Source: Fidelibacterota bacterium (GTDB lineage: Bacteria; Fidelibacterota; Marinisomatia; Marinisomatales; UBA1611). Taken from it: a DNA stretch of 62,901 bases. The stretch lies in contig JAOHKG010000003.1 in NCBI GenBank assembly GCA_028101095.1, positions 1 to 62,901 of the forward strand, read 5' to 3'. The translations under genes were made by a program, and so were the position numbers. Below the pieces are notes generated by a model. That model worked only from the letters and a program-made list of their open reading frames with translations, was not told the DNA's origin and made no database searches. The first letter of the stretch is position 1. The number at the start of each line of letters is the position of its first letter. This document shows positions 30,624 to 62,237 of the stretch, piece by piece.

Positions 30624-30763
30624 TATTGTTCCAAGGGTTAACCTTAATATACCGGAACCTATTTTATGAATCTTCTCTGCATCAATTAAAACTTCACCTA
30701 GTTCATTTATTGAAGATAAATAATAATCAAGTTGGTCGAGGTTATTTACCTCTGTGTTTTTTG

Positions 30764-31108: not shown

Positions 31109-31119
31109 ATATTCCTTTT

Positions 31120-31536: not shown

Positions 31537-31874
31537 CTTATTAACCTTTATTTACATATTTAATTCTTCATAAAGTAATATAAAAAAAAAGATATAACAA
31601 TTTTGTTTTTAGATAATTGTTTTATAAAACAATATAACTTATTTAATTACTTTTTTATTATATAGTACGTTCAAATGTTAACATCTTTAAGAACACAAAC
31701 TACAAAACTCTGTTTTTATATGTACTTAAGAATTTTTAAAAAAATATTCAACTGTTTATAAGTTTATAAAAAACTTGATAAACTTATAGTTGTTAAGAAA
31801 AAAAAACATAAATTTCTTTAAATAATAAAAAAAAAAACTTAGAAAATGTATGTTGATAAAAAAGTTGATAACTA

Positions 31875-38863: not shown

Positions 38864-38870
38864 GTGAAAC
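38857..38870. promoter_or_regulatory. Perfect palindrome GTTTCACGTGAAAC at the mnmE-stop / mnmG-start junction
   Basis: 14-bp perfect dyad. The mnmG GTG start forms the first three bases of the second half-site. Confidence 0.6.
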
Positions 38871-40195: not shown

Positions 40196-40197
40196 GG

Positions 40198-41895: not shown

Positions 41896-42112
41896 CAGAA
41901 TTAAAAGGGTGACATTTAATTATACGAAAAAATATTAATTTAATTGAAACGAAGAGGTTTTTTTCCTTGAGTGCGTCGATTGCATATTGTGAACAGGTTG
42001 GACTAAAGCGGCAACTTGGGGCAAAAAAGGGGGATAATAAAAGCTGGTAACCTTTTGTTAATAAGTGCAGAAAAAACCGCAGTGAGCGATCAAAGGTGTT
42101 TAAAAAAGGCAT
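41873..42112 (-). CDS. yidD: Membrane protein insertion efficiency factor YidD
   Basis: 79 aa with LLSPFF...CRFSPTCSQYAIDAL signature. Confidence 0.85.
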   Translation of the reverse strand: MPFLNTFDRSLRFFLHLLTKGYQLLLSPFFAPSCRFSPTCSQYAIDALKEKNLFVSIKLIFFRIIKCHPFNSGGYDPVE

Positions 42113-42128
42113 TGTTTAAAAATACTTT

Positions 42129-42263
42129 TTATAGCGCTAAACGTTTACGGCCTTTTTTCCTGCGTCTTTTTAAAACGTTTCTTCCGCCAACTGTTGCTGT
42201 TCTGGCCCTGAAGCCATGTTTGTTTCTTCTTTTTCTCTTGCTTGGTTGATATGTTCTTTTCAT
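42129..42263 (-). CDS. rpmH: 50S ribosomal protein L34
   Basis: Not in the ORF track (44 aa). Hand translation gives [44 protein letters not shown], with a TAA stop. Confidence 0.9.
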
Positions 42264-42426
42264 TTTCTTCTTTTGTTATTGTATTAAAGCCCGGGAAAAT
42301 ACAGAAAGACTGGGATTAACACAAAAAATAAATAGCTTAAATAAAACAAGAAAGAAAACAATAAACTTTAGTTTTTTTGTTGACTCTAATGGTGTGTTTT
42401 TACGTAATTTTTAACTGAAACATCTA

Positions 42427-42446
42427 TGTGGACAACTTGTGGATAA
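42427..42446. promoter_or_regulatory. Two tandem DnaA boxes overlapping the dnaA start codon
   Basis: TGTGGACAA (42427-42435, one mismatch) and TGTGGATAA (42438-42446, perfect reverse complement of TTATCCACA). They are 11 bp apart and in the same orientation. Confidence 0.6.
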
Positions 42447-43800
42447 CAATATAAACAACCACGTTTCTCTGTGGAACTTGGTATATGAAAAACTGAAAGA
42501 ATTGCTTCCGGGGCACGCCATTAACACGTGGTTTGAGCCGTTAGTTCCCATTACGATAACAGATGAAGAGTTGGTAATAGAGGTGCCAAATCAATTTTCT
42601 TACGAATGGATAGACTCTCATTATCAAAAAAACCTGGTAGACGCAATTGGAGTAGTTACTGAAAACCAAATATCTTATCGTTTTATTGTTTCTGCGAAGG
42701 GGCAAAAAAAGCAAAAAGAGGAGTCTGAGTCTTATAAAAAAGTAGAAAAAGTAGTAGAACCCGCCCCAAACAACCTTAATAAGACATACACCTTCAAGTC
42801 TTTTATTAAAGGAGCCAATAATGAATTCGCTAAGTCAGCGGCACAGTCTGTTTCTGAATCTCCAGGAAAAAATTCGTTCAACCCTTTAATCATTTATGGT
42901 GGCGTAGGTCTAGGGAAGACACATTTGATTCATTCTATCGGAAATAAAATACATGAGAAGAACCCACGGTCCAAAGTTGTTATAGTTACAAGTGAAAAGT
43001 TTACATTAGACTTTGTCAACAGTTTACGAAAGAATAGAACAATAGAGTTTGCACAACAGTATAGAAATGCGGATGTTTTGTTAATTGACGATATTCAATT
43101 CTTTAGGGGAAAAGAACAAACCCAAGAACAGTTTTTTCACACTTTTAACGTTTTACAACAAGCTGGAAAACAAATCGTTATGACAACTGATAAATATCCA
43201 GCAGAAATTAAAGGACTTCAAGAAAGACTACTTTCACGGTTTCAATCAGGGTTGTCCGTTGACATACAACCCCCCAATCTAGAAATTAGAATAGCTATTC
43301 TACTAGAGAAGGCTGAACAGAACGGGATACGTTTAGATTATAATATTATTGAGTTCATCGCAAAACATATTAAAAAGAACGTTCGTGACCTCGAAGGTGC
43401 TATTATTAGAATTTTAGCTAAATCATCGTTGATGAACAAAGAAATAGATTTTCAGCTTGTTAAAGAAGTTATTCGTGAAAGAATAGGTTCTAGTTTTAGC
43501 CCAGAACTGAGCATAGAAGACGTTGTAAAAAAGGTATCCGAAATAAGCAATGTTTCAGAAATAGAAATTGTAGGTAAAAGCCGTAAGATGGAAGTTGCTG
43601 AAGCTCGGCAAGTTTCTATGTACTTATGCAGAAAAATAATTGGAACATCTCTTAACAACATCGGTGTCTTTTTCGGTGGAAGAGACCACTCTACGGTAAT
43701 ACATGCTGTGAAAACTATTGATGAGAAAATTATAAATAAAAAACATATTAAAGAGCAAATAGAGTCAATTAAACAAGAGTTAGATTTTTCCCTTGCATGA
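42439..43800 (+). CDS. dnaA: Chromosomal replication initiator DnaA
   Basis: Walker A GGVGLGKTHL, DDIQF, and C-terminal DNA-binding HSTVIHA segment. GTG start. Confidence 0.95.
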   Translation: MDNNINNHVSLWNLVYEKLKELLPGHAINTWFEPLVPITITDEELVIEVPNQFSYEWIDSHYQKNLVDAIGVVTENQISYRFIVSAKGQKKQKEESESYKKVEKVVEPAPNNLNKTYTFKSFIKGANNEFAKSAAQSVSESPGKNSFNPLIIYGGVGLGKTHLIHSIGNKIHEKNPRSKVVIVTSEKFTLDFVNSLRKNRTIEFAQQYRNADVLLIDDIQFFRGKEQTQEQFFHTFNVLQQAGKQIVMTTDKYPAEIKGLQERLLSRFQSGLSVDIQPPNLEIRIAILLEKAEQNGIRLDYNIIEFIAKHIKKNVRDLEGAIIRILAKSSLMNKEIDFQLVKEVIRERIGSSFSPELSIEDVVKKVSEISNVSEIEIVGKSRKMEVAEARQVSMYLCRKIIGTSLNNIGVFFGGRDHSTVIHAVKTIDEKIINKKHIKEQIESIKQELDFSLA

Positions 43801-43810
43801 AATTTTAACA

Positions 43811-43838
43811 AGAGGCTAATTAACCTCTGTTTTAGTTA
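43811..43838 (+). terminator. Weak hairpin plus T-rich tail after dnaA
   Basis: AGAGG-ctaattaa-CCTCT followed by GTTTTAGTT. The stem is only 5 bp. Confidence 0.3.
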
Positions 43839-43927
43839 GAATAGTTATTTACTCTGTTTAAATTTTAACAGTTAAACTTTGGTTTATTTTAGATATAAAA
43901 AACATTTAAACGATATGGAGTTATGTT

Positions 43928-44365
43928 ATGCAAAAGAGCAGTATTAATAAAGTTATAATTGTCGGTTACCTAGGTCAAAACCCAGAAGCAAGATTTACCC
44001 CTCAAGGCACAGCGGTTACCAATATAAGTGTCGCAACAAAAGAATCATGGAAGAATCAAAGTGGGGAATTGCAAGAAAGAACCGAATGGCACAGGATTGA
44101 CATGTATGGTAAAATGGCAGAAACCGCATCTCAATACTTAACTAAAGGACAACTTGTTTACGTAGAGGGCCGCCTTAAAACTGACGAATGGGACGATAAA
44201 GAAACAGGTGCGAAAAGAAGAGCAACTAAAGTACAGTGTGATAGTTTTACTATGCTCGGGAGAAAAGGTGATTCCAACGGACAAGGTTCCTCAATGGCCT
44301 CGGCACCGTCAGCACCATCAGCACCATCAGTATCATCTATGGACGACGACGACTTACCTTTTTAA
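43928..44365 (+). CDS. ssb: Single-stranded DNA-binding protein
   Basis: OB-fold N-terminus, Gly/Ser/Pro linker, acidic tip DDDDLPF. Confidence 0.9.
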   Translation: MQKSSINKVIIVGYLGQNPEARFTPQGTAVTNISVATKESWKNQSGELQERTEWHRIDMYGKMAETASQYLTKGQLVYVEGRLKTDEWDDKETGAKRRATKVQCDSFTMLGRKGDSNGQGSSMASAPSAPSAPSVSSMDDDDLPF

Positions 44366-48683: not shown

Positions 48684-49490
48684 TTAGCTTTTATTTTTAT
48701 TTATTTCTCGAACAACTTTTTTTTGTAAAAAATTTTTAAAAAAAGTGTTTAAAAAAGGAATTAAACTTAGTTTTTTAGGAACATAGATTGTTTTTTTATC
48801 TTTTTTTATACCATCTATAATACTTTTTACACAAGACTCTAGGCTAACGGATTGACTTGTATGTTTTCTAGATTCATCTTTATGTTTTTTTCCATCAGCT
48901 CGGAAAGAGTTTCCTCTTAGATTTGTCCCTCTAATCCAACTTAAAACAGCTTCTAGTATGGTAATTTCTTCTTTGTTTTCCATTGAAATAGTTTCTAAAA
49001 AACCATGAAGGGCATGCTTTGAAGCAACATATCCGGAATGGTTTGGAAAACCCATAAGAGCTTGAGCGGTAGAACAACTAACAATTTTACCCTTTGATTT
49101 TTTCAAAAAAGGAATTGCGGCAAAGCAACAGTTTACAGACCCTAAATAGTTTGTTTTCATCAGGTCTGAAAAAAAGCTGGGGTCTGTTATTTCATCAAAC
49201 TTCGCCCACATACTTATACCCGCATTTAAGACTAAGCCATCGATTTGCCCAAATTTTTCGATAGTCCTGTCTATTAAACTTTGACATTGTTTTAGATTTG
49301 TTATATCTGTTTGAACATAAATGGCTTCTCCACCAGAAGTATTAATTTTTTCAGAAACTTTTTTAAGTTTATGTTCGGTTCTTGCAGCGCAAACAACTTT
49401 GGCACCCTCTTTTGACAGCTGCTTAGATAATTCCTCCCCAATACCTGAAGAAGCCCCTGTTATAATGAATACTTTATTCTTTAGAAGCAT
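48684..49490 (-). CDS. Short-chain dehydrogenase/reductase; candidate acyl/alkyl-DHAP reductase
   Basis: TGASSGIGEE, NAG and YVASKHAL (YxxxK) identify an SDR. The specific role is inferred only from operon context. Confidence 0.8.
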   Translation of the reverse strand: MLLKNKVFIITGASSGIGEELSKQLSKEGAKVVCAARTEHKLKKVSEKINTSGGEAIYVQTDITNLKQCQSLIDRTIEKFGQIDGLVLNAGISMWAKFDEITDPSFFSDLMKTNYLGSVNCCFAAIPFLKKSKGKIVSCSTAQALMGFPNHSGYVASKHALHGFLETISMENKEEITILEAVLSWIRGTNLRGNSFRADGKKHKDESRKHTSQSVSLESCVKSIIDGIKKDKKTIYVPKKLSLIPFLNTFFKNFLQKKVVREINKNKS

Positions 49491-49504: not shown

Positions 49505-51262
49505 CTAATCGTTTACAATATTGTTGTCTACTCCAAAAATGTTTTTTGGATCCTGATCTTTTTTAATTCCTTTTATCAATGATATACTGCCATTGGAGAT
49601 TGTATCTTTCATAAAGTCTTTTCTTAATTTACCAACTCCATGATGATGTGATATTGAACCACCGTTCTTTATAAAGTTAGCCCTCATAGCATATTCAATC
49701 TCTGTAAAAACATCTTCGGGTCTCTCTATTCCATCGTAACACATTGCAATTGTGTTATACATGCAAACACCGGTGTGATATATTTTTGAAATTCGAGAGG
49801 TGAAAAACGGCTTACCGGGAAGATTATGTTTTTTATGTAGTTCGTTTAAGAGTTTATGGGCCTCTTCTTTCACCTGATTTATCTTAGACCAGGGAACAGA
49901 GGTTTCCATTGTTTCACCTAAGATGTTTTGTGTAAATATCAGTTCTCTTATATAGGCAATCACCATTGTTGCAAGGTACCCGCTCTTTCCGGTACTCTCA
50001 CCGGCAACAAAACCATTATGTTTTTTTGAAAGTGATTTTAAGTTTTTCAATTGCTGTTTTACTTCTTGAGAAGAACCTTCAATCTTAAATGTAGCAGCCG
50101 TAAACTTTTCGGGATCAAACTTTTTTATATTAAAGAGATAGTATTTGGTTAACTTATCTAAAAAGCCACCGACACCCTCTTTTTTTTCTTTTAGAGAACT
50201 TCCTAATCTAATTTGAAGGTTATCAGCTAATCGGGAGCTTGCGGGAACCATATTTGAATGATATAAGTCATACATAAATGAAACTCCGCTTTCCCAACTA
50301 TAAAATAAAATAGATTCATATGTAGACTTTTCTGGTAACCGATGGACTTTTAAAGTTGCTTTTGTTATTATTCCAAGGTTCCCCTCTGAACCAAATAAAA
50401 GGTTTTGAGCTTTTATTCCAATTGAAGCTCTTGTCAACGGTTCTATTTGGTTTATAGTTCCAGTTGGTGTAATCATTGTTATATTTTGAACAATATCTTC
50501 GATATTTCCATATCTATGTTTTTTCATACCCGCGGCATTGGTAGAAATCCATCCACCTACGGTTGAGAACTCATAGCTATCTGGTTCATGTCCAGCTGTT
50601 AGACCCTTATCGTTGAGTTGTTTCTCTAATTCTTTTCCAGTTATACCAGAATAAACAGAGACCATTAGATTTTTTTCATCAATACTTTCAATTGAGTTCA
50701 TCCTTCTGGTGTCTACGGAAACAATCATTCTTTTTTCTTTTTTTGGTGGTCTTAGTGCGTTTGTTACATTTGTACCGCCACCATAAGGAATAAGACAAAC
50801 ATCATGTTTCTTTGCAAGTTCGACCAAGCGAATTGTTTCTTCTTCATTCTCTATGTAAAAAACTAAATCTGTAAATTTTTCTAGTTTATTATATAAAACT
50901 TTATATACTTCGTCTGTGGAGTGTTGTCCATGACTATGAAGAAGACGCTCATTGTTTTCGATTGAGTATCTGTCTTCATCAAAAGTTTCCTTCATTTCTT
51001 TCACAAACATTTCGTTAATGTTCGGTTTTTCGATATATTTAACTTTTAGTTCTTTAACTTTTGGTTCTTTTTCTATTTCTATTTCAAGTATACTTTCAAC
51101 GAAAGGAATAAAACTTGTCAGTTTTTTACCACAAACAGGATATCTGTTTCCTGAGAATGTTACCGCTTTATTATCTTCTATGATAAAAGCGGAATCCTTA
51201 TAACCCCACTTGTGTCCCCAGTTCTCATCGTTCACACCAAAAAATTTTTTATTATCACTCAT
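49505..51262 (-). CDS. Alkyldihydroxyacetonephosphate synthase-like FAD oxidase (AGPS/ADPS homologue)
   Basis: WGHKWGYKDS N-terminal block, FAD/PCMH PYGGGTNV, GHEPDSYEFSTVGGWISTNAAGMKKHRYGNIEDIV, and HHH loop SISHHHGVGKLR. The track's longest ORF starts at 51298; Met at 51262 leaves a 4-nt gap to the upstream stop. Confidence 0.8.
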   Translation of the reverse strand: MSDNKKFFGVNDENWGHKWGYKDSAFIIEDNKAVTFSGNRYPVCGKKLTSFIPFVESILEIEIEKEPKVKELKVKYIEKPNINEMFVKEMKETFDEDRYSIENNERLLHSHGQHSTDEVYKVLYNKLEKFTDLVFYIENEEETIRLVELAKKHDVCLIPYGGGTNVTNALRPPKKEKRMIVSVDTRRMNSIESIDEKNLMVSVYSGITGKELEKQLNDKGLTAGHEPDSYEFSTVGGWISTNAAGMKKHRYGNIEDIVQNITMITPTGTINQIEPLTRASIGIKAQNLLFGSEGNLGIITKATLKVHRLPEKSTYESILFYSWESGVSFMYDLYHSNMVPASSRLADNLQIRLGSSLKEKKEGVGGFLDKLTKYYLFNIKKFDPEKFTAATFKIEGSSQEVKQQLKNLKSLSKKHNGFVAGESTGKSGYLATMVIAYIRELIFTQNILGETMETSVPWSKINQVKEEAHKLLNELHKKHNLPGKPFFTSRISKIYHTGVCMYNTIAMCYDGIERPEDVFTEIEYAMRANFIKNGGSISHHHGVGKLRKDFMKDTISNGSISLIKGIKKDQDPKNIFGVDNNIVND

Positions 51263-51983
51263 ATAACGATCTCGCTTTGTCTTTAATTTTTTGTTCAAGT
51301 TCTAATGTCATTTTATCTACAGCTTCAGAAATTTCTTCTTTTGAAGCATTGCTACTGTTTAAAAACGATTTAGGGTATATAGGTTCAAGAATGTATACAA
51401 TAATTCTAGAAGGTCTCATTAATATTTGATCTTTTGGCCATGCTTTGTGTGATCCGAAAATAACGGCTGGCAGAATTGGTTTATTAAGGCTAATAGCAAA
51501 GCTTGAGGCTCCTTTTTTAAACGCAGTTATATTTCCGGGTTTGCCTCGGGTACCCTCAGGAAAAAAAATTAAACACCTTTTATTATAATCCATAAACGAT
51601 TGACATAACTTAAGAGTATCTTTTATGGATAGTTGCCTCACGCCGTCTATTTTGCGATCTATTGGAATTAAGTTCATAACAGTGTTGATTAAAAATTTTC
51701 TAATCCAACTATCAAACCAATAATCTTTTGCAGCAAGCATTCCAAAATGATTAAAACTTTTTTGTGCAGAGGCAGATAAGAGAGCTACATCCATGTGGCT
51801 ATTGTGGTTACTACAGAAAATATACGATGAGTCGGGAATGTTTTCACGTCCGTAGACTTTTAAAGGTGTGTAGAAAATAAAAACAAGTTTACTGTATAAG
51901 TAAAAAAGCGTTTTCCAAATTTTAAAATAGAAAGGTTGATTCCCCAGCAAATATTTAAACTTGGGGTTTTCTAATACTCCCAT
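51255..51983 (-). CDS. HX4D glycerolipid acyltransferase; candidate DHAP acyltransferase
   Basis: NHNSHMD and FFPEGTRG blocks. The track's longest ORF starts at 52049; Met at 51983 leaves an 8-nt gap after the upstream stop. Confidence 0.75.
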   Translation of the reverse strand: MGVLENPKFKYLLGNQPFYFKIWKTLFYLYSKLVFIFYTPLKVYGRENIPDSSYIFCSNHNSHMDVALLSASAQKSFNHFGMLAAKDYWFDSWIRKFLINTVMNLIPIDRKIDGVRQLSIKDTLKLCQSFMDYNKRCLIFFPEGTRGKPGNITAFKKGASSFAISLNKPILPAVIFGSHKAWPKDQILMRPSRIIVYILEPIYPKSFLNSSNASKEEISEAVDKMTLELEQKIKDKARSLYE

Positions 51984-51991
51984 GAAAGGAT

Positions 51992-53152
51992 TTATTTTCT
52001 TCCATATTTCATATGTGCGTCCGTCCAAGTGTGTGAACCAATAGCACAAATTAGAGAAATCTCTAGAGCCAATGCGGAACCAGCAATTATTTCTGCTAGT
52101 TTCCTTGAGGAATGTTCTCCTTCATTACAGCCAAGAAGTTCTAAGTTTTTGTTTTGCATTTTAAGGCGGGTTCCGCCACCAATTGTTCCAACTGTTAATG
52201 ATGGAAGTGTTAGTTTAAACTTCAGCCCGTCTTCTCTTTTTTCTATACCAATATGAGCGATGCTGTTTTCTGCTACACATGCAGCATCTTGTCCAGTCGC
52301 CAAATAAATAGCTGTTAATGCATTAGAGACGTGCAGTCCGTTTCCATGCGTTCCCGCCATGCTAGATACAATGGGGAAAAAACTCCAGGAATCAAATAAA
52401 ATATCAGGATCCATTTTTAAAACTCTTTTCATCACACTATTCTTAATGGTTGTTTCTGCCGTAACCGCATGTCCGCGACCGAGTAGCATATTTCGAACAG
52501 AGGCTTTTTTATCACTGTTTAAATTTGATTCTAAAATATAATTCTGATTTGTTTTCTTCTGAATAAATTCGCAAGCTACCTGGGCTGCAAGTGTAACCAT
52601 ATTCTGCCCAGCTGCGTTGCTCGTGTTTAATACAATATCGAGTATTACATAGTTTTGTACTGTATATTGATCTATCCTTAAAACTTTACCGTGGCTTGTA
52701 GTGCTTTCGGCAACATTTATAATTTCTTTTTCATTCGCTTTCACCCAGTTCTGAAACTTCATGCTTTCATCAATATTGTCAAAAATAAAAACTGGAGCAC
52801 GAGAAAGCTCTTGTCTAAAGTGGCGCGCAACAGTTCCACCGCTAATATTTGCAGCATAAATACCACGATTCATTGACATCGACAAAGTTCCTTCAAGAGT
52901 ACAAAGAGGTATACAAAACTCACCCTGAGCATAAGCACCATCTAGAGAAAGTGGTCCGACAACAGACATAGGAACCTGCATAAAACCAACATGGTTTTCA
53001 ATAATTCCCTGAAGGTCTTCTGCGTTATCCCGACTTGTGTCATCAATTTCTACACCAGAAAACTGTTTAACCCATTCTTTTCTAGCATCTGTATCTTCTT
53101 GTTTGTAGCCCCTGGGAATAGAAACATTTCGTTCATTGTTTTGATCAGACAT
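51992..53152 (-). CDS. HMG-CoA reductase-like NAD(P)H thioester reductase (catalytic domain only)
   Basis: ENHVGFMQVPMSVVGPL, TLEGTLSMSMNRG, SDKK, GQDAAC, TVGTIGGGT and C-terminal His, laid out as in class I HMGR. The cofactor block reads NAAGQNM instead of DAMGxNM. Confidence 0.75.
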   Translation of the reverse strand: MSDQNNERNVSIPRGYKQEDTDARKEWVKQFSGVEIDDTSRDNAEDLQGIIENHVGFMQVPMSVVGPLSLDGAYAQGEFCIPLCTLEGTLSMSMNRGIYAANISGGTVARHFRQELSRAPVFIFDNIDESMKFQNWVKANEKEIINVAESTTSHGKVLRIDQYTVQNYVILDIVLNTSNAAGQNMVTLAAQVACEFIQKKTNQNYILESNLNSDKKASVRNMLLGRGHAVTAETTIKNSVMKRVLKMDPDILFDSWSFFPIVSSMAGTHGNGLHVSNALTAIYLATGQDAACVAENSIAHIGIEKREDGLKFKLTLPSLTVGTIGGGTRLKMQNKNLELLGCNEGEHSSRKLAEIIAGSALALEISLICAIGSHTWTDAHMKYGRK

Positions 53153-53307: not shown

Positions 53308-54348
53308 TTAATACCTTCTGTTTTTATTTTGATTTTTATCAAAAACAGGTTCTCCTGTTTCTGGGTCAAACTCTACACCCGAGGACTTTTTTTTAATAGG
53401 GATTCCTGTTTCTGGATTAAACTCTAACCCCGAAGGTGGCTTTTTAATAGGGTCTCCCGATTCTGGATCAAACTCTAACACCGGGTTTATTTTAGGTCTT
53501 GGCAGTGGAGTAAGTTGGTTTCCCTTTTTTAAACTAGTGTTAAAAAAGTTAAAACCCAAGCTAGCACTTATTGTCGGGTATTTTTCCGCCACACTAATAT
53601 CATATACACCTTTTAAATTCAAAAACTTAGAACTAAGTAGAGAAGCATCTATTTGAAGAGTAGTAGAAGTGTTCATTCCAAAAAGGCTAAAAATAGAACT
53701 GAAATTTTCTACTCCGAGAGTAATTCCAACCCCCTTCATTAAAAAGTTATAAGAAGCTCCTTGATACCTCTCCGGTTCCTGTGAACCGTAGGTAAAGATA
53801 CTGTGTAACCCTCCATAAAAAGGGTTTTTCTTAGACGTTGTTGTTTTAATGGATTGAATTGAATGAATCGCGGTACCAATTTCAACATTTTTATTTAGTT
53901 CAATATTTATTCCAGCTTTGAAGGGTCTCCGGTTTTTTGAATTTATATATTTTTTGTACTCGAGACCAACATGCCACGCGAATGGACTCCCGCCCCCTAC
54001 ACCAACTCCACCAGATAAACCAGCTTCTGAATTTTTATACCCCTTTAATATTGACATTTCTCCTCTTAAGCCTGCTAATCCAGTATTGACACTTAATCCT
54101 TGATATGAACCATTATTCCAATAATAATTATAAGAATAATTTTCACTGGGAGATATATACCCAAGATTTCCTTCGGGAGCGATGTTCAAAGACCCATTAA
54201 AGGATGTTGCTTTTTCCCCTTCTTCCAATATTTTTGACGTTCTGATATGGGAATTATTATAACAACCAGAAAGTATAAACAAAAAAAGCGGAAAAAGAAG
54301 AATCCTTTTTATCAACTTAGCTGGCAAAAATAATATATGAAACCACAT
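53308..54348 (-). CDS. Hypothetical lipoprotein, Gly-rich barrel-like, with C-terminal EFDPETG repeats
   Basis: Lipobox LSGC, alternating Gly/aromatic strands, three tandem repeats at the C-terminus. Confidence 0.6.
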   Translation of the reverse strand: MWFHILFLPAKLIKRILLFPLFLFILSGCYNNSHIRTSKILEEGEKATSFNGSLNIAPEGNLGYISPSENYSYNYYWNNGSYQGLSVNTGLAGLRGEMSILKGYKNSEAGLSGGVGVGGGSPFAWHVGLEYKKYINSKNRRPFKAGINIELNKNVEIGTAIHSIQSIKTTTSKKNPFYGGLHSIFTYGSQEPERYQGASYNFLMKGVGITLGVENFSSIFSLFGMNTSTTLQIDASLLSSKFLNLKGVYDISVAEKYPTISASLGFNFFNTSLKKGNQLTPLPRPKINPVLEFDPESGDPIKKPPSGLEFNPETGIPIKKKSSGVEFDPETGEPVFDKNQNKNRRY

Positions 54349-55228
54349 AGACTACGAACCCTGGAATTATAAGATATTCAGGTTTTCGCTTAAGGGTTAT
54401 AGACGGTCCAAACATTTCTATATATTCAAGATAGTTCAATGGATTTGCGATAGCCTCATCATATTCTTGTTGTGATATTATGTTTGTTTCTAGCAATTCT
54501 ACTGGTGACCGGCCATCAACAATTTTTACGAATTGTTTTTTTGTTATTTGTCCGGAGTAATATCTTTGATATACCCCTTCTCGAGGTTTTCTTTTACCCT
54601 TTTTAGTTTTTTCAATAAAATGTTTATTCTCTAATATTTTTTCTATCTCATCTTGAACCAACGCACGGATTTCTTTCTCTGTTAGATAGCGTTTTTCGGA
54701 TTCTTCTTTTTTTACGTCATCAATTTTGGTGTCTAAACCTGGAAAGTCTGGGTTTAATATGTTTGTTTTTGGTACAACTTCTTTGCTTGGGCTCTCAATC
54801 AAAGGTTTGGTTGTTTTAGTTATGTTTTCAACGTCTTCTTTTGGTTTTTTTTGGATTACAGTCTTTTTTTCAGCTTCTTTCTGCTTCTTTTCTCGAAGTA
54901 AAGTTGTATTAAAAACATCTGGGATGTTTGCTACCCATTCACCGGTCATTGGATCCAGCTCAGGTGGGAAAAGAATTTCTTCTGAAAGAGTGTTTTCATC
55001 GCAATTATAAGATAGAATTAAGCCTGAATTAGATTTCACAATTTCAATACTTTCGCAAGAGAAATATTCAATTTTATCATCGATTAAAACGTGAATGTGG
55101 TTCATATATGTACCCAAAAACTCACCACGAACTGTTTCCTTTTTTTCTTTAAAGAAAAAATTAACTTCAGTAGCAAACCCAATGCTTAGATTGAAAAAAA
55201 TAAAAATAAGCCACTTTGTTTTAACCAT
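54317..55228 (-). CDS. Hypothetical envelope protein (signal peptide, Lys/Glu-rich linker, C-terminal TM anchor)
   Basis: 303 aa. N-terminal hydrophobic segment, small beta motif, DPMTGEW, charged coil, terminal helix YLIIPGFVVYVVSYIIFAS. Confidence 0.55.
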   Translation of the reverse strand: MVKTKWLIFIFFNLSIGFATEVNFFFKEKKETVRGEFLGTYMNHIHVLIDDKIEYFSCESIEIVKSNSGLILSYNCDENTLSEEILFPPELDPMTGEWVANIPDVFNTTLLREKKQKEAEKKTVIQKKPKEDVENITKTTKPLIESPSKEVVPKTNILNPDFPGLDTKIDDVKKEESEKRYLTEKEIRALVQDEIEKILENKHFIEKTKKGKRKPREGVYQRYYSGQITKKQFVKIVDGRSPVELLETNIISQQEYDEAIANPLNYLEYIEMFGPSITLKRKPEYLIIPGFVVYVVSYIIFAS

Positions 55229-55694
55229 ACGTCTTGCCTGAAATATCTATTTTTAAAGGTTTATAAAAAGTATTTCTTCCAAGTAAAGCACCCAAAGTTG
55301 CCCCAACAAAAGTAAAAACTTTTTCGTGTTGATCACTAAAACTTTCTTTGGAAACAATAAGGGTTAAATATCCAATAGCACCCCCAAAAACGGATACACT
55401 TGTTGCCAAAAAAAACTCTGCTTTTTGAGGGACAATAAGTACGTAATCAATATTATTGTGGCTAAAGAGATTGTGGTTTATTCCATCCGAAACAATAAAA
55501 CTTTCAGGTGTTACAGTGACGAGTTCTCCCTGAACCTCCATCTTACCGGGTCCAACAAAACGAATTGTCTTTCCAGAATAGTTGTTTTTGAAATTTTCTA
55601 AGCGCGTAATTTTTACAGACTCAGAACGCAAAGCGGTCTGGGAAAAGATAAGTGACATAAAAACTATCGCAATAAATATTATTTTTAAAGTCAT
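55221..55694 (-). CDS. Hypothetical small envelope protein with glycine-zipper helices
   Basis: 157 aa. Signal peptide, small beta motif, GGAIGY and GATLGALLG glycine zippers. Confidence 0.55.
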   Translation of the reverse strand: MTLKIIFIAIVFMSLIFSQTALRSESVKITRLENFKNNYSGKTIRFVGPGKMEVQGELVTVTPESFIVSDGINHNLFSHNNIDYVLIVPQKAEFFLATSVSVFGGAIGYLTLIVSKESFSDQHEKVFTFVGATLGALLGRNTFYKPLKIDISGKTYG

Positions 55695-55705
55695 ACTAAG
55701 CTTTT

Positions 55706-57214
55706 CTAAAACTCAAAAAACTCCCAATAAAAATCTATATAAGGTTGTTGAAAATGAAGACCAATCTTAAAAGTTTCATTGAGGGTGTATTGTAAGCCAA
55801 AATCAAAATCCACCATACTTACGCTTCCAGCTGCAGACTCTAAAGAAAAAGCGGCTGTTCCATCATCGCCTAAATAATCTGAGGCTAAATCAGAAAAGTT
55901 CATTGCTCGGTACCCATTGTCTATCCATGCAGACCCTAAAAACTTTAAATCTTTTCTTAAGTCATATTCTAGAGAAGCCCAGGCGCGAAAAGGAACTTTA
56001 TATAGTTTTTCCGTACTCCAGCTTACAACACGTTCGCTTCCACCAATATTAACAGAAGGTTTAAGAAACTCATTTCTATCCAGAAAAGCATTTGAGGCTT
56101 TTATTCCTGTTGACCAACCAATTTTTCCTCTTCCAGTTGGATTAACCCTCCTTGATGAAAAAACAAGATAAGCTTCTATGTAGAAACGATCAGCATTGAC
56201 AGATTCATTTGTTACATCCGTTACACTAATATCTTTCATGGAGCCTTTAAGTTCATTTAATGGAATCGGTTCGCTTTCACCTTCTGCATTTTCACTATCA
56301 ATAGTTATAGCATGCGCATACCTAGAGACAATACTTTCAGCTGGATATTTTCTATGAAGACCAAGCCCCCAAGATGCTGCAACTTCTTTTTGAGCTGATT
56401 TTTTATGATAAAATCGCATTCTAGGATGAAGGTTTAGGTCGTTATTAAAATTTGAACCAATTTTAGAAGTTATCATAAACCTATCTGTTAATCCATACCC
56501 AATAGACAAGCCACTAAGATAAAAAGTGTTTCCTGCTAGTGGAAAAGCTGTAGGGTCTAAAAAAACATTTATCAGTTTAGATTCACCTTGGTAAAACTTT
56601 GTTCTTTCTTCAGATTTTCTATCTAAAACTCCACCATGGTAGCGTTTCATTTTTTGAATATCTCTTTTCTGAACAACAGCATCGCCGTATTGTGTTCTTA
56701 TAACAAACTCTTCTGCTGTTTCGCCCAGAACAGAACCAATAAAAAACTCACCGTTTTTATTCGTTATTTCTGCTGATTCTTCAAGAAACTGCTCAGAGGG
56801 AATGTTGAATGTTCCACTTGAAGTCTTTAATCTAATAACTTCATTTTCAATTGATAAAATCTCACCCTCTCTAATGGTTCCATCTAAAAAATGAAACCGT
56901 TTTTGCATACCAGTTTCTAGAGAAGTAGCAACCGTTAAATCTCTTTTTATTGTTTTTGTTGTTTCTTTTTCTACTGGTTTTTTAATGCTTTGGCTTTGAA
57001 AGCCTTTTATTACTTCTGCGCCTTGCATGCGGTTCAAATCGTCAAGAGGCGCACCATATTGACTCAGCAAATGGTTGTACAAGTCTTGACTAGAAAAACC
57101 TGCGCTAGCAGAAAGAGATTCTATTGCCGTTTTTTGACCAGGGAGAATGTTTCCCGACTGACTTAATAAAAAAGATGAAAGAAAAAATACCAATATAGAA
57201 TAGATTGGTTTCAT
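55706..57214 (-). CDS. Hypothetical outer-membrane beta-barrel protein with N-terminal soluble repeats
   Basis: 502 aa. Signal peptide, two small beta motifs, about 300-aa alternating-strand region ending ...YWEFFEF (terminal Phe). Confidence 0.6.
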   Translation of the reverse strand: MKPIYSILVFFLSSFLLSQSGNILPGQKTAIESLSASAGFSSQDLYNHLLSQYGAPLDDLNRMQGAEVIKGFQSQSIKKPVEKETTKTIKRDLTVATSLETGMQKRFHFLDGTIREGEILSIENEVIRLKTSSGTFNIPSEQFLEESAEITNKNGEFFIGSVLGETAEEFVIRTQYGDAVVQKRDIQKMKRYHGGVLDRKSEERTKFYQGESKLINVFLDPTAFPLAGNTFYLSGLSIGYGLTDRFMITSKIGSNFNNDLNLHPRMRFYHKKSAQKEVAASWGLGLHRKYPAESIVSRYAHAITIDSENAEGESEPIPLNELKGSMKDISVTDVTNESVNADRFYIEAYLVFSSRRVNPTGRGKIGWSTGIKASNAFLDRNEFLKPSVNIGGSERVVSWSTEKLYKVPFRAWASLEYDLRKDLKFLGSAWIDNGYRAMNFSDLASDYLGDDGTAAFSLESAAGSVSMVDFDFGLQYTLNETFKIGLHFQQPYIDFYWEFFEF

Positions 57215-57369: not shown

Positions 57370-58068
57370 GTGAAAAACACTACAGAAATAATTAACGACT
57401 TGATGGAGCTACGCGGCATGAAAAGAAAGCGAGACGTTGCTCAGTACTTTGGTGTTAGCCCTCAGGCATTAAGCATTTGGATCGCAAAAGATCAAATACC
57501 TCCTAAGCATTTATTAAAACTATCAAGGCAGGAAAAAATGGAAAGCATTTCTCGTTCTACTTCTTACAATAAGCTCAATAATACAGAAACAACAGATGAG
57601 CTAGAGACAGTAGTTAACTATTTAATGAAAGAAAACTTAAGGTTAAAAGAGGAGTTGAGGGAGTTTAAATCAAAACAAAAAACCTCTGACACATCAAACA
57701 ACCAAGGTGTGTTTGATAAAATTATAGCAGACTCGCTCTATATTTCGGGGAAAGTTTCTGATGGAATTATTACTGAAATTGATGGAAGTTGGGAAAAAAT
57801 AATGGGATACAAACCAAATAATCTGGTCGGGAAATCTTATGATAGGGATGATTTAATTCACCCAGATGATTTAAAAGCAGCAAAAAAAATACAAGAAAAA
57901 CTAAAAAACTCTGAATCAATCACTTTCTCTAAATATAGTACTATACAAAGATGGAAGAACGGCGAAACTGGAAAATATATAATGTTGAGTATGGTTTGGG
58001 ATATTAATGTAAATGAGGATCTTGCATTAATAGTTTGTAAACCAATTGATGGGTTCATTTCGGATTAA
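57370..58068 (+). CDS. HTH (phage CI-repressor-like) / coiled-coil / PAS regulator
   Basis: KRDVAQYFGVSPQALSIWIAKDQIPPKHLL helix-turn-helix, LKEELREFK coil, PAS-like GIITEIDGSWEKIMGYKPNNLVGKSY. GTG start. Confidence 0.65.
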   Translation: MKNTTEIINDLMELRGMKRKRDVAQYFGVSPQALSIWIAKDQIPPKHLLKLSRQEKMESISRSTSYNKLNNTETTDELETVVNYLMKENLRLKEELREFKSKQKTSDTSNNQGVFDKIIADSLYISGKVSDGIITEIDGSWEKIMGYKPNNLVGKSYDRDDLIHPDDLKAAKKIQEKLKNSESITFSKYSTIQRWKNGETGKYIMLSMVWDINVNEDLALIVCKPIDGFISD

Positions 58069-58077
58069 AATAAGTTT

Positions 58078-58485
58078 ATGGGGGCAATTCTATTTGCCGG
58101 TTTAATTAGGGTCTCATTTGTATTGAGTGAGGGTAAAAGCAATGCCCCCAAAAAATTAGAGTTAGAAGATAAAAAAGGAGCAAGAAGTTTAATTAAAATT
58201 AATAATCTCCGAGATGAGAATGTAATGAAAAAAATAAATAGAATAGGAATCCGATTCTCAGTTTGATCCTCTTGTAGGAATCATTGGTGGTATGGTGTAG
58301 AATATTTTATTTCTGAGCAATTTTCTTTGGGCGGTGAAGTCTCAATGAACTTTGTAATGAACGAATGGAAAAATGAAAACCAAGACGAATACGATTATGA
58401 TGATAACGAAAATATATCAGAGGACTGTAGGTTAACTCCTGGAGTAGTTCTTATTCAATTTATTTTTAATTATTATTTTGATTGA
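58078..58485 (+). pseudogene. Possible small outer-membrane barrel remnant split by an in-frame TGA
   Basis: The 62-aa ORF ends at TGA 58264-58266. The same frame continues ...WWYGVEYFISEQFSLGGEVSMNF...GVVLIQFIFNYYFD, and its TGA overlaps the next ATG (TGATG). Confidence 0.3.
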
Positions 58486-59441
58486 TGAATATTTTTAACG
58501 ATATCCTATTTGCTGTAACAAGAGAGGATTATAAAATAGAGCATCAAACAATAATAGAAAGAAACTATAAAAAAATTCTTACAGTTTGTTCAGGTGGTTG
58601 CACGCCACTGTCATTGAAAGCATTATCAAAAAACTTGATGGTAACCGCATTTGACATTAACCCACATCAATTAATACATTTGAATAATAAAACTAAGCTC
58701 ACCCAGACAAAAAAATTAAAACAATTAAATGCAGGCTTTAAAGGTGATATGGCTCTTAATCAATGTGGGAAATTTGAAAAAATGTTCCAAGTTTTTAGAG
58801 TTTCATTTATTAAAAATATAACTACTGAATCTGAAATAGAAGAACTCTTCAATCTCAAAACTGAGGAGAAAAAGAGAAATTATATCATATTAAGTTGGTT
58901 AAAGAACTCGAATATTAAAACCCCTTTTAAAAAAGTGTTTAACGATGAAGTAATAGAATCAATCTTTAGTAAGCGGGCAACGCAACATGCTACTCCAGGT
59001 ACGTATATTGAGTATTTTTTTAATAAGATAATGAATTCTTTTAAATCGAATAATTTTTACAAAAACCCTTTTCTACAGCACATTTTTTTAGGATATTATT
59101 TGAAAGAAAGTTTTATGCCATACATTAATTATCAAAAAGAATTAAAGATCAAAACCGTTCTTGGTACTGTTCATGATGTTCCCAATATTGAAACATATGA
59201 TTTGGTCAGCCTATCTAATCTGTTCGATTGGTGTGATACACAGTTTGTAAAGCAATGTGCATCGTACTTATCTAAGCTTAGATCCGGATCAGGTATTATT
59301 CTAAGGCAGCTAAACAATGACAAAAACTGGTATCCTATTTTTAAAAATCAATTTGAAGAAGACACTTCATTCAATACTTATTGGAAAAAAAATGATAGGA
59401 GCATGTTTTACGATCATTTTAGACTTTTCATAAAAAAATGA
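58485..59441 (+). CDS. BtaA-like (DUF3419) SAM-dependent 3-amino-3-carboxypropyl-transferase family protein
   Basis: FAVTREDY..., ILTVCSGGCTPLSL, AFDINPHQLIHLN, LSNLFDWCD blocks as in BtaA. It is shorter (318 aa) than BtaA. The track starts it at TTG 58482. Confidence 0.65.
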   Translation: MNIFNDILFAVTREDYKIEHQTIIERNYKKILTVCSGGCTPLSLKALSKNLMVTAFDINPHQLIHLNNKTKLTQTKKLKQLNAGFKGDMALNQCGKFEKMFQVFRVSFIKNITTESEIEELFNLKTEEKKRNYIILSWLKNSNIKTPFKKVFNDEVIESIFSKRATQHATPGTYIEYFFNKIMNSFKSNNFYKNPFLQHIFLGYYLKESFMPYINYQKELKIKTVLGTVHDVPNIETYDLVSLSNLFDWCDTQFVKQCASYLSKLRSGSGIILRQLNNDKNWYPIFKNQFEEDTSFNTYWKKNDRSMFYDHFRLFIKK

Positions 59442-60334
59442 ATTTATTATTTCAAGTTTGCGATGAAGAAGGCTTATCTAAATACGTCCAAGAATTAAAA
59501 GAGATCGAAGAAAATATCTTATATCCTTTAGAAAATGGCGCAGAATCATTTAGAATAAGTCACGGAAAGATGTACACTCCATTTTTTACAAATCAAGGCT
59601 ATAAAACAAGGTTTCTTGTAATAAAAGATGGGCAAAAAGTTATAGGTGGGATTGTTGCTATTTGGAAAAACATAACAATATCAAATCAAATACATAAACT
59701 TCTATATGTTGCAGATTTAAAATTAAAAAAAGGTTATAGAGGGAAAGGTGTTATTAAAAGAAGTCTTTCTTACTTATTTATAAGATGGCCTTTTATAAAA
59801 AACTTTCAAGGGTGGGATTTAATATACTTTTGTGCAATGCAAAGACGAGAAGTTGGAGTAGATAAAACGTTTAAAGGGATGCACTTAGGAAGGTTGGCAA
59901 AACCAGTTGCTGAACTTTTTATATATATGGTTGACCCAAAGTTATTTTCGGATCATAATTTTTCTAGACTAGAGTACAGACCCTTAAAACATATAAATTT
60001 GAGCCAAGATCGGGAAAAAAATGTTCTTTGGAACGATGGAATAAAAGATATTATTTCAAATAAAAACGGGCAGAAAATCAAACTTGGGCACTTAAACCCA
60101 GAAATATTTATCAAGTTAAATAAAAAAAAATTTGATGATGCGATCAAAGAAATAAAAGAGAAAACAGGTAGTTTAGCTTGTTTTTCGATTGATACAAAAG
60201 AACAAGAAAAACTAGATTGGCTTAAAGAAATGGGCTTACAATCAGAGACAAAATGTAAAATATTTTCATTCAGTCCTTTCTCATTTGGATCTATTAAATC
60301 TAATACATTTTATATATCAACAGGAGAAATATAA
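59438..60334 (+). CDS. Hypothetical protein with GNAT-like acyltransferase core
   Basis: VIGGIVAIW...LLYVADLKLKKGYRGKGVIKRSL resembles GNAT motif A. ATGA overlap with the upstream gene. Confidence 0.45.
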   Translation: MNLLFQVCDEEGLSKYVQELKEIEENILYPLENGAESFRISHGKMYTPFFTNQGYKTRFLVIKDGQKVIGGIVAIWKNITISNQIHKLLYVADLKLKKGYRGKGVIKRSLSYLFIRWPFIKNFQGWDLIYFCAMQRREVGVDKTFKGMHLGRLAKPVAELFIYMVDPKLFSDHNFSRLEYRPLKHINLSQDREKNVLWNDGIKDIISNKNGQKIKLGHLNPEIFIKLNKKKFDDAIKEIKEKTGSLACFSIDTKEQEKLDWLKEMGLQSETKCKIFSFSPFSFGSIKSNTFYISTGEI

Positions 60335-60985
60335 ATGAAGACATTTATAAGAACACTTAAGCAAAAAACTCCAATACACAAAAACTATTATTTCGCAAAG
60401 TTGAGAAATGATGAATTAACGCTGGAAGAGTTTCAAAAATCACAACTTAACTTTTTCGATGCAGTTCTTTCATTTACAAAACCAATGTTTATAATCTCAA
60501 GCAAATTAGATTCGTACGAACAGAGACTGTTAGTTTTAGAAAATATTTTCGAAGAACATGGTAATGGTGACATAACAAAAAATCATGGAAACACATTTGA
60601 GGAGTATTTAATTTTACTTGGAGTAAATAAAAAAGAGATAAAAAACCGTAGGGTAAATAAGTCATCACAAAATTTTAATCTTTCTTTGATAGAATACTCC
60701 CAAAAAGAATCTACGTACTTTAGTTTAGCAATGATGGGAATCATTGAAGAAAGGTATTCTGAAATGTCAAAACTAATATCAGAAAAATTATTAAAAAACA
60801 AATGGCTAACAGAGGAAACGCTAGTCCACTATAAAGTTCATGAAAAATTAGACATTGAACACGCAGAGTCTTTTTATCATTTAATAAGTTCTAAGTGGTT
60901 AGATAAAAACATACGAAATGATATAAAAAAAGGGCTTCTGTTCGGAAATAATTTGATTTTAAATTTATATACAGATCTGCTTTGA
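60335..60985 (+). CDS. Heme-oxygenase-like diiron oxidase/oxygenase (HDO; CADD/PqqC/TenA-like fold)
   Basis: FEEHGNGDITKNH, IIEERY and HEKLDIEHAESF give a 3-His/3-carboxylate-type ligand pattern. Confidence 0.7.
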   Translation: MKTFIRTLKQKTPIHKNYYFAKLRNDELTLEEFQKSQLNFFDAVLSFTKPMFIISSKLDSYEQRLLVLENIFEEHGNGDITKNHGNTFEEYLILLGVNKKEIKNRRVNKSSQNFNLSLIEYSQKESTYFSLAMMGIIEERYSEMSKLISEKLLKNKWLTEETLVHYKVHEKLDIEHAESFYHLISSKWLDKNIRNDIKKGLLFGNNLILNLYTDLL

Positions 60986-60986
60986 T

Positions 60987-61026
60987 CAGATTACAATTAA
61001 TACATATTTTTTAATCTGTATTTTTA
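60987..61026 (+). terminator. Possible weak terminator after the HDO gene
   Basis: CAGATTA (60987-60993) pairs with TAATCTG (61012-61018), followed by TATTTTT. The stem is AT-rich and the loop is large. Confidence 0.25.
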
Positions 61027-61057
61027 AATATAAACCTTAATGATAATAACGAACTAA

Positions 61058-61290
61058 AGATCTTATTTTTTAAATGAGTTTTCTTCAAATTATCATGATC
61101 CAAAGAGAAGAAACTTTGACTTATATTCAGGTGATATAGATGGAACAAATATGAAGAGAATTACTTTTTTTGACGGGTTTGATGGATTCCCCATGTTTAG
61201 CCCAAAGGGAAAATATCTTGTTTTTACATCTAATAGAAATCAATTAAAAAAAGTGATACAAACTTGTTCATCGCTGAATGGAAAAATTAA
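61058..61290 (+). pseudogene. 3' remnant of a PD40/TolB-like beta-propeller gene, frameshifted
   Basis: ...DLYSGDIDGTNMKRITFFDGFDGFPMFSPKGKYLVFTSNRNQLKK, then A7 tract 61246-61252. One extra A would give SDTNLFIAEWKN with TAA overlapping ATG 61290. No 5' part is present. Confidence 0.5.
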
Positions 61291-62237
61291 TGAAATTATT
61301 TTTTAGTACTATCTTTTTTCTAAACCTTTGTTTAGCTCAATCGTCAGAAAATGTTGTAATACCTTTTGATATTCTTGACAACATTGGTGATGTTGAAAGT
61401 CTAGAAAGTTTGGACCCTGAACAATTAATGACCGTACAGAAAGCATTAGGTGGAATAAAAGTTGATGGAAAGCTTGGACCCGAAACTATGAAAGCAATGC
61501 GGGGATATTTTGCTTATTTAAAAATTTTAGAAAGGCTCAATGGTTCTATTCCAAAAGAATATATTAAAGAAGCTTTTTCTCATTCGAAGCTAGAAATTCA
61601 CAAAGAAATAGCAGATCGATTTGCTAGACCGTATGAAAAAAAGACATGGGTGGAATACAGAAAAATATTTGTAAAAGAATCTAGGATAGCATCTGGAGCA
61701 AAGTTCTATAAAGAAAACAAAAAACTTATCTCTGAAATATCGGATAAATATTCAATGGACCCATTCATCATCGTAACTATTGCAGGAGTTGAAAGTAATT
61801 ATGGTGTTCATCACTCTCAGTTTTCAGTATTTAATTCCTTATACACGCAGATTCAAGAAATGCCCAGAAGGTCAAAATGGGCTACAAAAGAACTCGCAGA
61901 GTTTTTAAAATATTGTTTCAATGATAAACTCGACCCTCAAGAGATAGGAGGTTCATATGCAGGAGCGTTTGGGTTTGGTCAATTCATTCCCTCTAGTTTC
62001 ACAAGATATTCTATCGACTATAATAATAATGGTGTAAGAGAACCCTATAGCTGGCCAGATGTTTTAGGTAGCATAGCTAATTATCTTCGCATGAATGGGT
62101 ATGAGTCAGATAGTAATAATTATGAAGAAGATGGAGACATCTGGAAAGCTATTTATGCGTACAATCATTCGGATAACTATGTTATGGCTGTATTAGAATT
62201 AACAGAAGAGATAAGAAAGAGAGCTAAAGCTGAATAA
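61278..62237 (+). CDS. Lytic murein transglycosylase (MltB/SLT_2-like) with PG-binding domain
   Basis: Signal peptide, PG_binding_1-like VQKALGGIKVDGKLGPETMKAM, catalytic region AGVESNYG...GAFGFGQFIPSSF. Alternative start is ATG 61290. Confidence 0.8.
   Translation: MEKLMKLFFSTIFFLNLCLAQSSENVVIPFDILDNIGDVESLESLDPEQLMTVQKALGGIKVDGKLGPETMKAMRGYFAYLKILERLNGSIPKEYIKEAFSHSKLEIHKEIADRFARPYEKKTWVEYRKIFVKESRIASGAKFYKENKKLISEISDKYSMDPFIIVTIAGVESNYGVHHSQFSVFNSLYTQIQEMPRRSKWATKELAEFLKYCFNDKLDPQEIGGSYAGAFGFGQFIPSSFTRYSIDYNNNGVREPYSWPDVLGSIANYLRMNGYESDSNNYEEDGDIWKAIYAYNHSDNYVMAVLELTEEIRKRAKAE

Follow-up and report, generated by a model that had tools for sequence, protein, structure and literature searches.

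What is made by three adjacent genes that bring together a DUF3419/BtaA-family transferase dependent on S-adenosylmethionine (SAM), a GNAT-like protein and a heme-oxygenase-like dimetal oxidase (HDO)? This question is raised by a stretch of 62,901 nt of DNA from a Fidelibacterota bacterium (contig JAOHKG010000003.1), termed the window below. The three open reading frames, ORF1 to ORF3, all lie on the plus strand (Table 1; positions are those of the window). An earlier note on this DNA had drawn their boundaries and described two tight junctions, and both were confirmed on the sequence. The ATG of ORF2 overlaps the ORF1 stop codon as ATGA, and the ATG of ORF3 directly follows the TAA of ORF2 with a gap of 0 nt. 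The start of ORF1, an ATG with a TTG one codon upstream, is the one used by its homologues (318 aa). A marine metatranscriptome contig of 3321 nt spans all three genes; DNA carry-over into it is possible. The trio region has a G+C content of ~30% (window average ~33%) and is located ~15 kb from dnaA. Homologues, which stem from Tara and other marine samples, carry the names Fidelibacterota or Neomarinimicrobiota (Marinimicrobia/SAR406). Full-text literature searches, in which DUF3419 or BtaA was combined with HDOs, Myxococcus and iron-containing redox enzymes, retrieved no paper that links these families or describes the trio. The earlier note, whose author knew of no described pathway with this trio, is borne out for the literature searched. 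We conclude that the genes constitute an undescribed, widely conserved three-enzyme pathway that is built from known enzyme superfamilies.

The evidence that carries this conclusion is co-conservation. The earlier note had left it to neighbourhood mining whether DUF3419 and HDO genes co-occur elsewhere. They do, as the trio is kept together at ~150 loci in at least five bacterial phyla. Fidelibacterota contigs with ORF1 proteins 48-59% identical to that of the window carry a trio of 319, 298 and 216 aa at the same chromosomal position. A scan of species-representative genomes for relatives of ORF2 yielded 78 loci, nearly all from Myxococcota (Myxococcus xanthus, Corallococcus, Pyxidicoccus, Archangium, Polyangiaceae and Nannocystaceae) and one from a metagenome-assembled genome of Planctomycetota. 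For a census, hidden Markov models (HMMs) of the three proteins were run on 90 loci which had been found through ORF1 or ORF2. All three genes were present in 76; of the other 14 loci, eight end at a contig edge. The search was also run from the opposite end. With the HDO alone, 237 relatives were found in metagenomes; the best 80 loci, ranging from 22 to 75% G+C, were inspected. In almost every one of these with enough flanking sequence the HDO adjoins ORF1 and ORF2, in either of two orders. The order 1-2-3 of the window is also seen in Hahella ganghwensis and in a further lineage of low GC content. A Planctomycetes genome and a plasmid of Mycobacterium riyadhense have the order DUF3419-HDO-GNAT (1-3-2). 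The persistence of the same three partners in two gene orders argues for function and against mere inherited synteny. An apparent fusion of ORF2 and ORF3 at one locus (L081) was discarded as an artefact of a masked N run at the junction.

The adjacency of the three genes is far above chance. That it is fortuitous, or that the trio is a mobile or defence element, might be argued from the one copy on the Mycobacterium plasmid. Fortuitous adjacency is refuted by the census, and the ~150 loci across phyla, the two gene orders and the conserved chromosomal position in Fidelibacterota speak equally against a mobile element. In addition, none of the three proteins matched a PADLOC model at E up to 0.01. 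We consider the probability of this explanation as negligible. Co-conservation across phyla together with the changed gene order is strong evidence for one pathway, and because the trio has been kept together in at least five phyla it very probably makes one product.

The earlier note had recognized the first protein as DUF3419/BtaA-like, and profile searches bear this out. ORF1 matches PF11899 (DUF3419) with 65.4 bits at a gathering cut-off of 28.2. The match is in two stretches that together cover most of the 385-position profile; the best one aligns residues 85-314 with profile positions 123-382. The M. xanthus orthologue scores 69.6 bits. Because most of the profile is covered, ORF1 is a compact member of the family and not a truncated one. 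The note had estimated it to be about 100 aa shorter than BtaA; comparison via the PF11899 profile gave ~70-100 aa and a strong divergence. A set of 317 homologues of 318-320 aa was found, which some sources annotate as Fidelibacterota or BtaA proteins. A cross-phylum alignment delineated the conserved blocks SGGC (motif I), D57-x-N-P-x-Q, LSN-x-F-D-W, RQLNN and DRS-x-FY. Within them S36-G-G-C39 and D57, which belong to the class-I SAM-binding core, are invariant or nearly so. In the AlphaFold (AF2) model (predicted local distance difference test, pLDDT, 91) a long helical insertion, residues ~60-215, interrupts a Rossmann core. To our knowledge BtaA and BTA1 are the only characterised members of PF11899. 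They transfer an aminocarboxypropyl group, and BtaA acts on a lipid.

The single sequence of ORF2 remained below the Pfam GNAT cut-offs (~15 bits, E ~0.02). A family profile from 50 members matched the GNAT enzyme AAC(2') in the PDB at E 8e-5, in the region from strand 4 to helix 3 that binds coenzyme A (CoA). The GNAT-like nature proposed in the earlier note was thus confirmed, and it can be refined. The motif R-G-K-G-V at residues 101-105 forms the putative CoA loop, which is conserved as R-G-x-G-[VI] in the family. When the AlphaFold model of ORF2 (pLDDT 86) was compared with the PDB by Foldseek, the top 50 matches were all N-myristoyltransferases (NMT), with E ~2e-8 and a probability of 1.00, at a template modelling (TM) score of ~0.5 which is moderate only. 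PDB sequence searches with ORF2 and with the family profile returned no NMT. Because of the uniform structural matches ORF2 is predicted to be a tandem GNAT protein most like N-myristoyltransferase.

A second feature of ORF2 points in the same direction. An exhaustive profile search gathered 617 cluster representatives of ~300 aa. ORF2 ends in S-T-G-E-I-COOH, and the family pattern T-x-[E/D]-I-COOH is almost invariant: isoleucine is the last residue in 96 of 99 complete homologues, and 85 of the 99 end in Glu-Ile. The same T-x-[E/D]-I ending was found in a divergent clade of 258-325 aa which occurs in the gene order 1-3-2 and includes the Mycobacterium protein. Protein C-termini normally vary freely. 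N-myristoyltransferase uses its terminal carboxylate as the catalytic base. The near-invariant C-terminus and the NMT-like fold together suggest that, by analogy, the terminal carboxylate of ORF2 may serve as the catalytic base as well.

ORF3 matches PF14518 with 51.8 bits (gathering cut-off 28.9). Its residues E74, H84, E138, H169, D173 and H176 constitute a set of three histidines and three carboxylates which is invariant in orthologues from five phyla; they align with E81, H88, E142, H174, D178 and H181 of CADD. The full ligand set claimed by the earlier note is therefore present and conserved. Within the superfamily ORF3 stands apart. It remained below every curated HDO subfamily cut-off, e.g. 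47.6 bits with the CADD model TIGR04305 (cut-off 200) and 19.9 bits with the BesC model NF042919 (cut-off 500). PDB sequence searches returned CADD and other p-aminobenzoate (pABA) synthases at E 2e-8 as well as HrmI and BesC, each at 1e-6, so that ORF3 is roughly equidistant from these groups; UndA was not matched in this search. ORF3 is a bona fide HDO, in a separate clade that is marked by its obligatory neighbours, DUF3419 and GNAT. A 2026 review of HDOs (PMC13108848) reports that only about a dozen HDOs are functionally validated and that those act on fatty-acid or amino-acid substrates; a term search of its text found no mention of lipid or acetyltransferase. An amino-acid moiety is the site of action of each of the nearest characterised relatives of ORF3 (pABA synthases, HrmI and BesC). 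A substrate with an amino-acid moiety fits the product of an aminocarboxypropyl transferase.

As pABA synthases are the best matches of ORF3 in PDB and NCBIfam sequence searches, it might be asked whether ORF3 is a self-sacrificing pABA synthase of the CADD type and the operon serves folate synthesis. The residues Tyr27 and Lys152, described as the sacrificial residues of CADD in the same review (PMC13108848), correspond to F20 and I148 in ORF3. In the family Phe/Leu and Ile/Val occupy these positions and neither CADD residue is conserved. Because Tyr27 and Lys152 are absent, ORF3 is not taken to be a pABA synthase. Further, the TIGR04305 score is far below its cut-off (15.8 bits in the M. xanthus orthologue), and CADD needs neither a DUF3419 nor a GNAT partner. 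The missing sacrificial residues and the low curated score largely refute this explanation, and it is very improbable.

The neighbours of the trio were compared by clustering greedy gene calls from 103 loci. The absence of a BtaB-like methyltransferase after the trio, stated in the earlier note, applied generally: none was found beside the trio in the window or at ~170 loci, and no such family recurred in the clustering. The only accessory family recurrent across lineages is a membrane protein of PF00487, the fatty-acid-desaturase/hydroxylase family. It is orthologous among the Fidelibacterota loci L004-L008, ~19 Myxococcaceae loci and several others (phmmer E 1e-64 to 1e-77), and its gene adjoins the trio in Myxococcota, Planctomycetota and some Fidelibacterota. 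The window does not contain it. We conclude that the PF00487 gene belongs to the module as a fourth, accessory member in many lineages. Because no other gene family recurs across lineages, the module appears self-sufficient and therefore draws on common metabolites. Two other candidate partners were rejected. A 3'-phosphoadenosine-5'-phosphosulfate (PAPS)-type sulfotransferase of 372-410 aa, followed by a convergent desaturase-family gene, comes after the trio in L004 (8523-10672) and L007 (8630-10787); as a partner it is restricted to the Fidelibacterota L004-L008. PMT_2 glycosyltransferases encoded near the trio of M. xanthus and L007 are not homologous to each other at E 1e-5, and they were seen at seven and two loci only. 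In the Mycobacterium riyadhense locus (L091; NZ_OY970457.1, 411858-424832, a linear plasmid of 472 kb) the trio lies between PE/PPE genes and an RND-family (MmpL-type) transporter gene. This adjacency suggests that the product is exported in mycobacteria. The Mycobacterium copy was the only hit of a tblastn search of plasmids.

From the gene linkage, the family memberships, the conserved ligands and C-terminus and the transcription of the genes we infer a chemical scheme. Our proposal, to which we give somewhat less than an even chance, is one operon-encoded pathway in which an amphiphilic product arises by aminocarboxypropyl transfer, N-acylation and tailoring with O2. Its inputs would be SAM, acyl-CoA or an acylated acyl carrier protein, O2 and a common acceptor. 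Going by its family membership, ORF1 would bind SAM and, like BtaA, move the 3-amino-3-carboxypropyl (homoserine-type) group to a nucleophile of the acceptor, most likely a hydroxyl or an amine of a glycerolipid or another amphiphile; methylthioadenosine would be the co-product. ORF2, judged by its fold and motifs, would bind acyl-CoA in the N-terminal GNAT half and acylate the new alpha-amino group, with its own invariant C-terminal carboxylate as the base as in N-myristoyltransferase. Finally, ORF3 would activate O2 at its dimetal site and oxidise the amino-acid part of the product, as its ligands and nearest relatives suggest. Options are oxidative decarboxylation or C-C cleavage, desaturation, and N-oxygenation. 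Further decoration might be carried out by the desaturase/hydroxylase-family membrane enzyme in many lineages and by the sulfotransferase in some Fidelibacterota. For the cell envelope this would yield either a phosphorus-free lipid of the N-acyl homoserine type or a lipo-amino acid. The RND (MmpL-type) neighbour in Mycobacterium and the recurrent membrane partner of the desaturase family are hints at an amphiphilic product. In its most specific form, namely that the trio makes an unrecognised class of phosphorus-free envelope lipid or lipo-amino acid with a SAM-derived, N-acylated and dimetal-oxidised homoserine-type head, acylated in an NMT-like manner via the C-terminal carboxylate, the proposal is possible, if doubtful.

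Several observations weigh against this scheme. Six Myxococcota loci (L024, L029, L041, L046, L054 and L058) have ORF1 and ORF2 adjacent and no HDO within 8 kb. In the two inspected, L041 and L024, no obvious substitute for the HDO was seen; ribosomal protein S1 or unrelated genes follow. In these six the HDO may be elsewhere in the genome or dispensable. As to ORF2, the structural likeness to NMT is moderate and the Pfam NMT family was absent among its matches at E up to 1. For ORF1 the structure search of the PDB returned no close solved relative (best E 2e-3, TM 0.33), all neighbours being generic class-I methyltransferases. The M. xanthus orthologue obtained 29.7 bits with Methyltransf_25 at a cut-off of 27, with no qualifying stretch. 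Nothing in the ORF1 sequence appears to separate aminocarboxypropyl from methyl transfer, and we know of no sequence marker for the former.

These points on ORF1 would equally fit an ordinary methyltransferase on a DUF3419 scaffold. The module would then methylate, acylate and oxidise without a SAM-derived homoserine moiety. The class-I Rossmann methyltransferase fold agrees with this, as do its structural neighbours. These structural matches are, however, weak and generic. The significant, near full-length Pfam match is to PF11899, a family in which aminocarboxypropyl transfer is the activity of the characterised members. The earlier note had pointed to profile searches as the place where ORF1 might be reassigned to an ordinary methyltransferase family. 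Such a reassignment did not occur, as the ORF1 protein of the window stayed far below the methyltransferase cut-offs. We regard a methyltransferase as quite unlikely.

The remaining adverse observations concern the lipid nature of the product. All three proteins lack hydrophobic or membrane segments, and the gene clustering showed no lipid-synthesis gene that accompanies the trio consistently. The desaturase-family partner is no proof of a lipid substrate, because its best curated match is GntB (78 at a cut-off of 380), followed by CrtR and CrtW, all far below the cut-offs. GntB is the arginine gamma-hydroxylase of guanitoxin synthesis and acts on free arginine; CrtR and CrtW are carotenoid enzymes. 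RtxC of rhizobitoxine synthesis is another membrane enzyme of the desaturase family that acts on a polar substrate. The same module could also make a soluble product. In this case ORF1 would use SAM and a small acceptor to form a non-proteinogenic amino acid (X-substituted homoserine or diaminobutyrate type). On this compound the HDO would act by N-oxygenation, cleavage or desaturation, in the manner of HrmI and BesC on lysine derivatives, and the GNAT protein would acetylate or acylate it, e.g. to a hydroxamate or for self-protection. The outcome might be a metallophore, an antimetabolite, a signal or an osmolyte. In addition to the soluble appearance of the three proteins and the GntB-like partner, it may be noted that the characterised HDOs closest to ORF3 use free amino acids as substrates. 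The distribution is patchy and includes a plasmid with an adjacent exporter, and some Fidelibacterota have a sulfotransferase gene after the trio. On the other side, the conserved, apparently vertical position in the streamlined SAR406 genomes and in Myxococcota fits a housekeeping function in the envelope better. Neither receptor nor transporter nor resistance genes were recurrent beside the trio in the gene clustering. The likeness to the NMT fold speaks for a long acyl chain, and the only characterised relative of ORF1, BtaA, acts on a lipid. Taken together, a soluble product appears somewhat unlikely.

How does the proposed amphiphile pathway compare with known systems? The closest is the BtaA/BtaB route to the betaine lipid diacylglyceryl-trimethylhomoserine (DGTS) of Rhodobacter and Agrobacterium, which is carried out by BTA1 in algae. 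ORF1 shares PF11899 with BtaA and keeps the SAM-binding blocks of the class-I fold, and the same aminocarboxypropyl transfer is proposed as the first step. BtaA itself uses diacylglycerol as the acceptor of this group from SAM, and methylthioadenosine is set free. However, pairing (or fusion) with the N-methyltransferase BtaB is the defining feature of the DGTS pathway. As this pairing is missing and ORF1 is much shorter, the trio is not classed as a DGTS pathway. Because the fixed partners are an N-acyltransferase and an HDO and not BtaB, the amine is probably acylated and not trimethylated.

With eukaryotic NMT, ORF2 shares the predicted tandem GNAT fold, a CoA loop in the N-terminal half and a fixed C-terminal residue. 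It differs by the lack of a match at the sequence level and is ~100 aa shorter. Because ORF2 is bacterial and operon-linked to small-molecule enzymes, a protein N-terminal glycine is unlikely as its acceptor. Compared with the HDOs CADD/NePabS (pABA), BesC, HrmI/BelK and UndA, ORF3 has the dimetal ligands on the same helices, yet it lacks the Tyr/Lys pair of CADD. A similar combination of steps is known from microcin C. There, MccD and MccE combine SAM-dependent aminocarboxypropyl transfer, by an enzyme with a methyltransferase fold, with the removal of a carboxyl group and with acetylation by a GNAT enzyme. MccE decarboxylates with pyridoxal phosphate and not with an HDO, and the substrate is a peptidyl-nucleotide. 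The likeness is one of steps and of shared superfamilies, no homology beyond the latter having been detected or sought.

Table 1. Positions of the trio, of its neighbours and of further features in the 62,901 nt window
Feature	Position	Strand	Description
ORF1	58485-59441	+	318 aa, compact class-I SAM-dependent transferase of the DUF3419/BtaA family
ORF2	59438-60334	+	298 aa, predicted tandem-GNAT, N-myristoyltransferase-like acyl-CoA N-acyltransferase
ORF3	60335-60985	+	216 aa, heme-oxygenase-like dimetal oxidase (HDO), PF14518
Metatranscriptome contig	58310-61630		3321 nt
Possible regulator	57370-58068	+	232 aa, helix-turn-helix (CI-repressor type) and PAS; suggested by synteny
Broken upstream gene	58078-58480	+	copy of a gene intact in L001
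Lytic transglycosylase gene	61278-62237		after the trio
Short-chain dehydrogenase	48684-49490	-	
FAD_binding_4/FAD-oxidase_C protein	49505-51298	-	597 aa, resembles alkyl-dihydroxyacetone phosphate synthase
PlsC-type acyltransferase	51255-52049	-	
HMG-CoA reductase	51992-53152	-	NADPH-type; HMG, 3-hydroxy-3-methylglutaryl
Four ORFs	53308-57214	-	346, 303, 157 and 502 aa
mnmE/trmE, yidC, dnaA, ssb cluster	38870-44365		
dnaA	42439-43800		
Lowest G+C stretch	30001-32000		25% G+C

In the window the trio is followed by a lytic transglycosylase gene, and neither a sulfotransferase nor a desaturase-family gene is present there. Upstream, a gene with PAS_3 (33 bits) and Phage_CI_repr (27.5 bits) matches precedes the trio on the same strand, as it does in L001, L004 and L007. 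This arrangement is limited to Fidelibacterota; in other phyla the gene was not found beside the trio by gene clustering. Regulation of the trio by the product of this gene is possible, judged by synteny.

Between this gene and ORF1 lies another gene in broken form. Its intact counterpart in L001 codes for an outer-membrane-barrel-like protein of 195 aa ending in ...FIFNYYFE. The window copy is interrupted by an in-frame TGA (58264-58266), and its reading frame shifts near 58290. In the metatranscriptome run X25 a G inserted after 58288 (~31/146 depth) would bring the C-terminal part back into frame; because of this variant the break appears to be polymorphic in nature. The small ORF directly 5' of ORF1 was set aside, being not conserved between Fidelibacterota clades and broken in the window.

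Further upstream, four consecutive genes on the minus strand (short-chain dehydrogenase to HMG-CoA reductase) resemble a bacterial ether-lipid/isoprenoid cluster. In L007 and L008 the same side of the trio holds at least three of them, those for the FAD oxidase, the acyltransferase and HMG-CoA reductase. The four ORFs between the HMG-CoA reductase gene and the possible regulator are syntenic in L001-L008. Their counterparts in related Fidelibacterota loci have no Pfam family on record and several of the four have signal-peptide-like N-termini; they may be lineage-specific envelope proteins. The sign of the GC skew flips near 40 kb, at the cluster of mnmE/trmE, yidC, dnaA and ssb. The window thus probably includes the chromosomal replication origin region. 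Its lowest G+C stretch is listed in Table 1. An Rfam scan of the window gave no match, and scans for promoters and terminators gave results not above those of shuffled sequence.

What does the finding mean? The HDO clade described here has two obligatory partners, by which its substrate is constrained. The module is transcribed in the ocean, as far as a contig with possible DNA carry-over can tell, and has a conserved position in SAR406, an abundant uncultured ocean lineage. It is also present in Myxococcus xanthus, which is genetically tractable and in which knock-outs and lipidomics are routine. If the product were a small metabolite, it would be a new SAM-derived amino-acid natural product. 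If it were a phosphorus-free lipid, this would bear on the phosphorus economy of marine bacteria. Should the lipid reading be true, it would comprise a new function of DUF3419, a new HDO reaction and clade and the first bacterial NMT-like acyltransferase for small molecules, with a product that occurs in SAR406, myxobacteria, planctomycetes and some mycobacteria. In either case the trio is a well-constrained, widespread and expressed target for research on HDOs and bacterial lipids.

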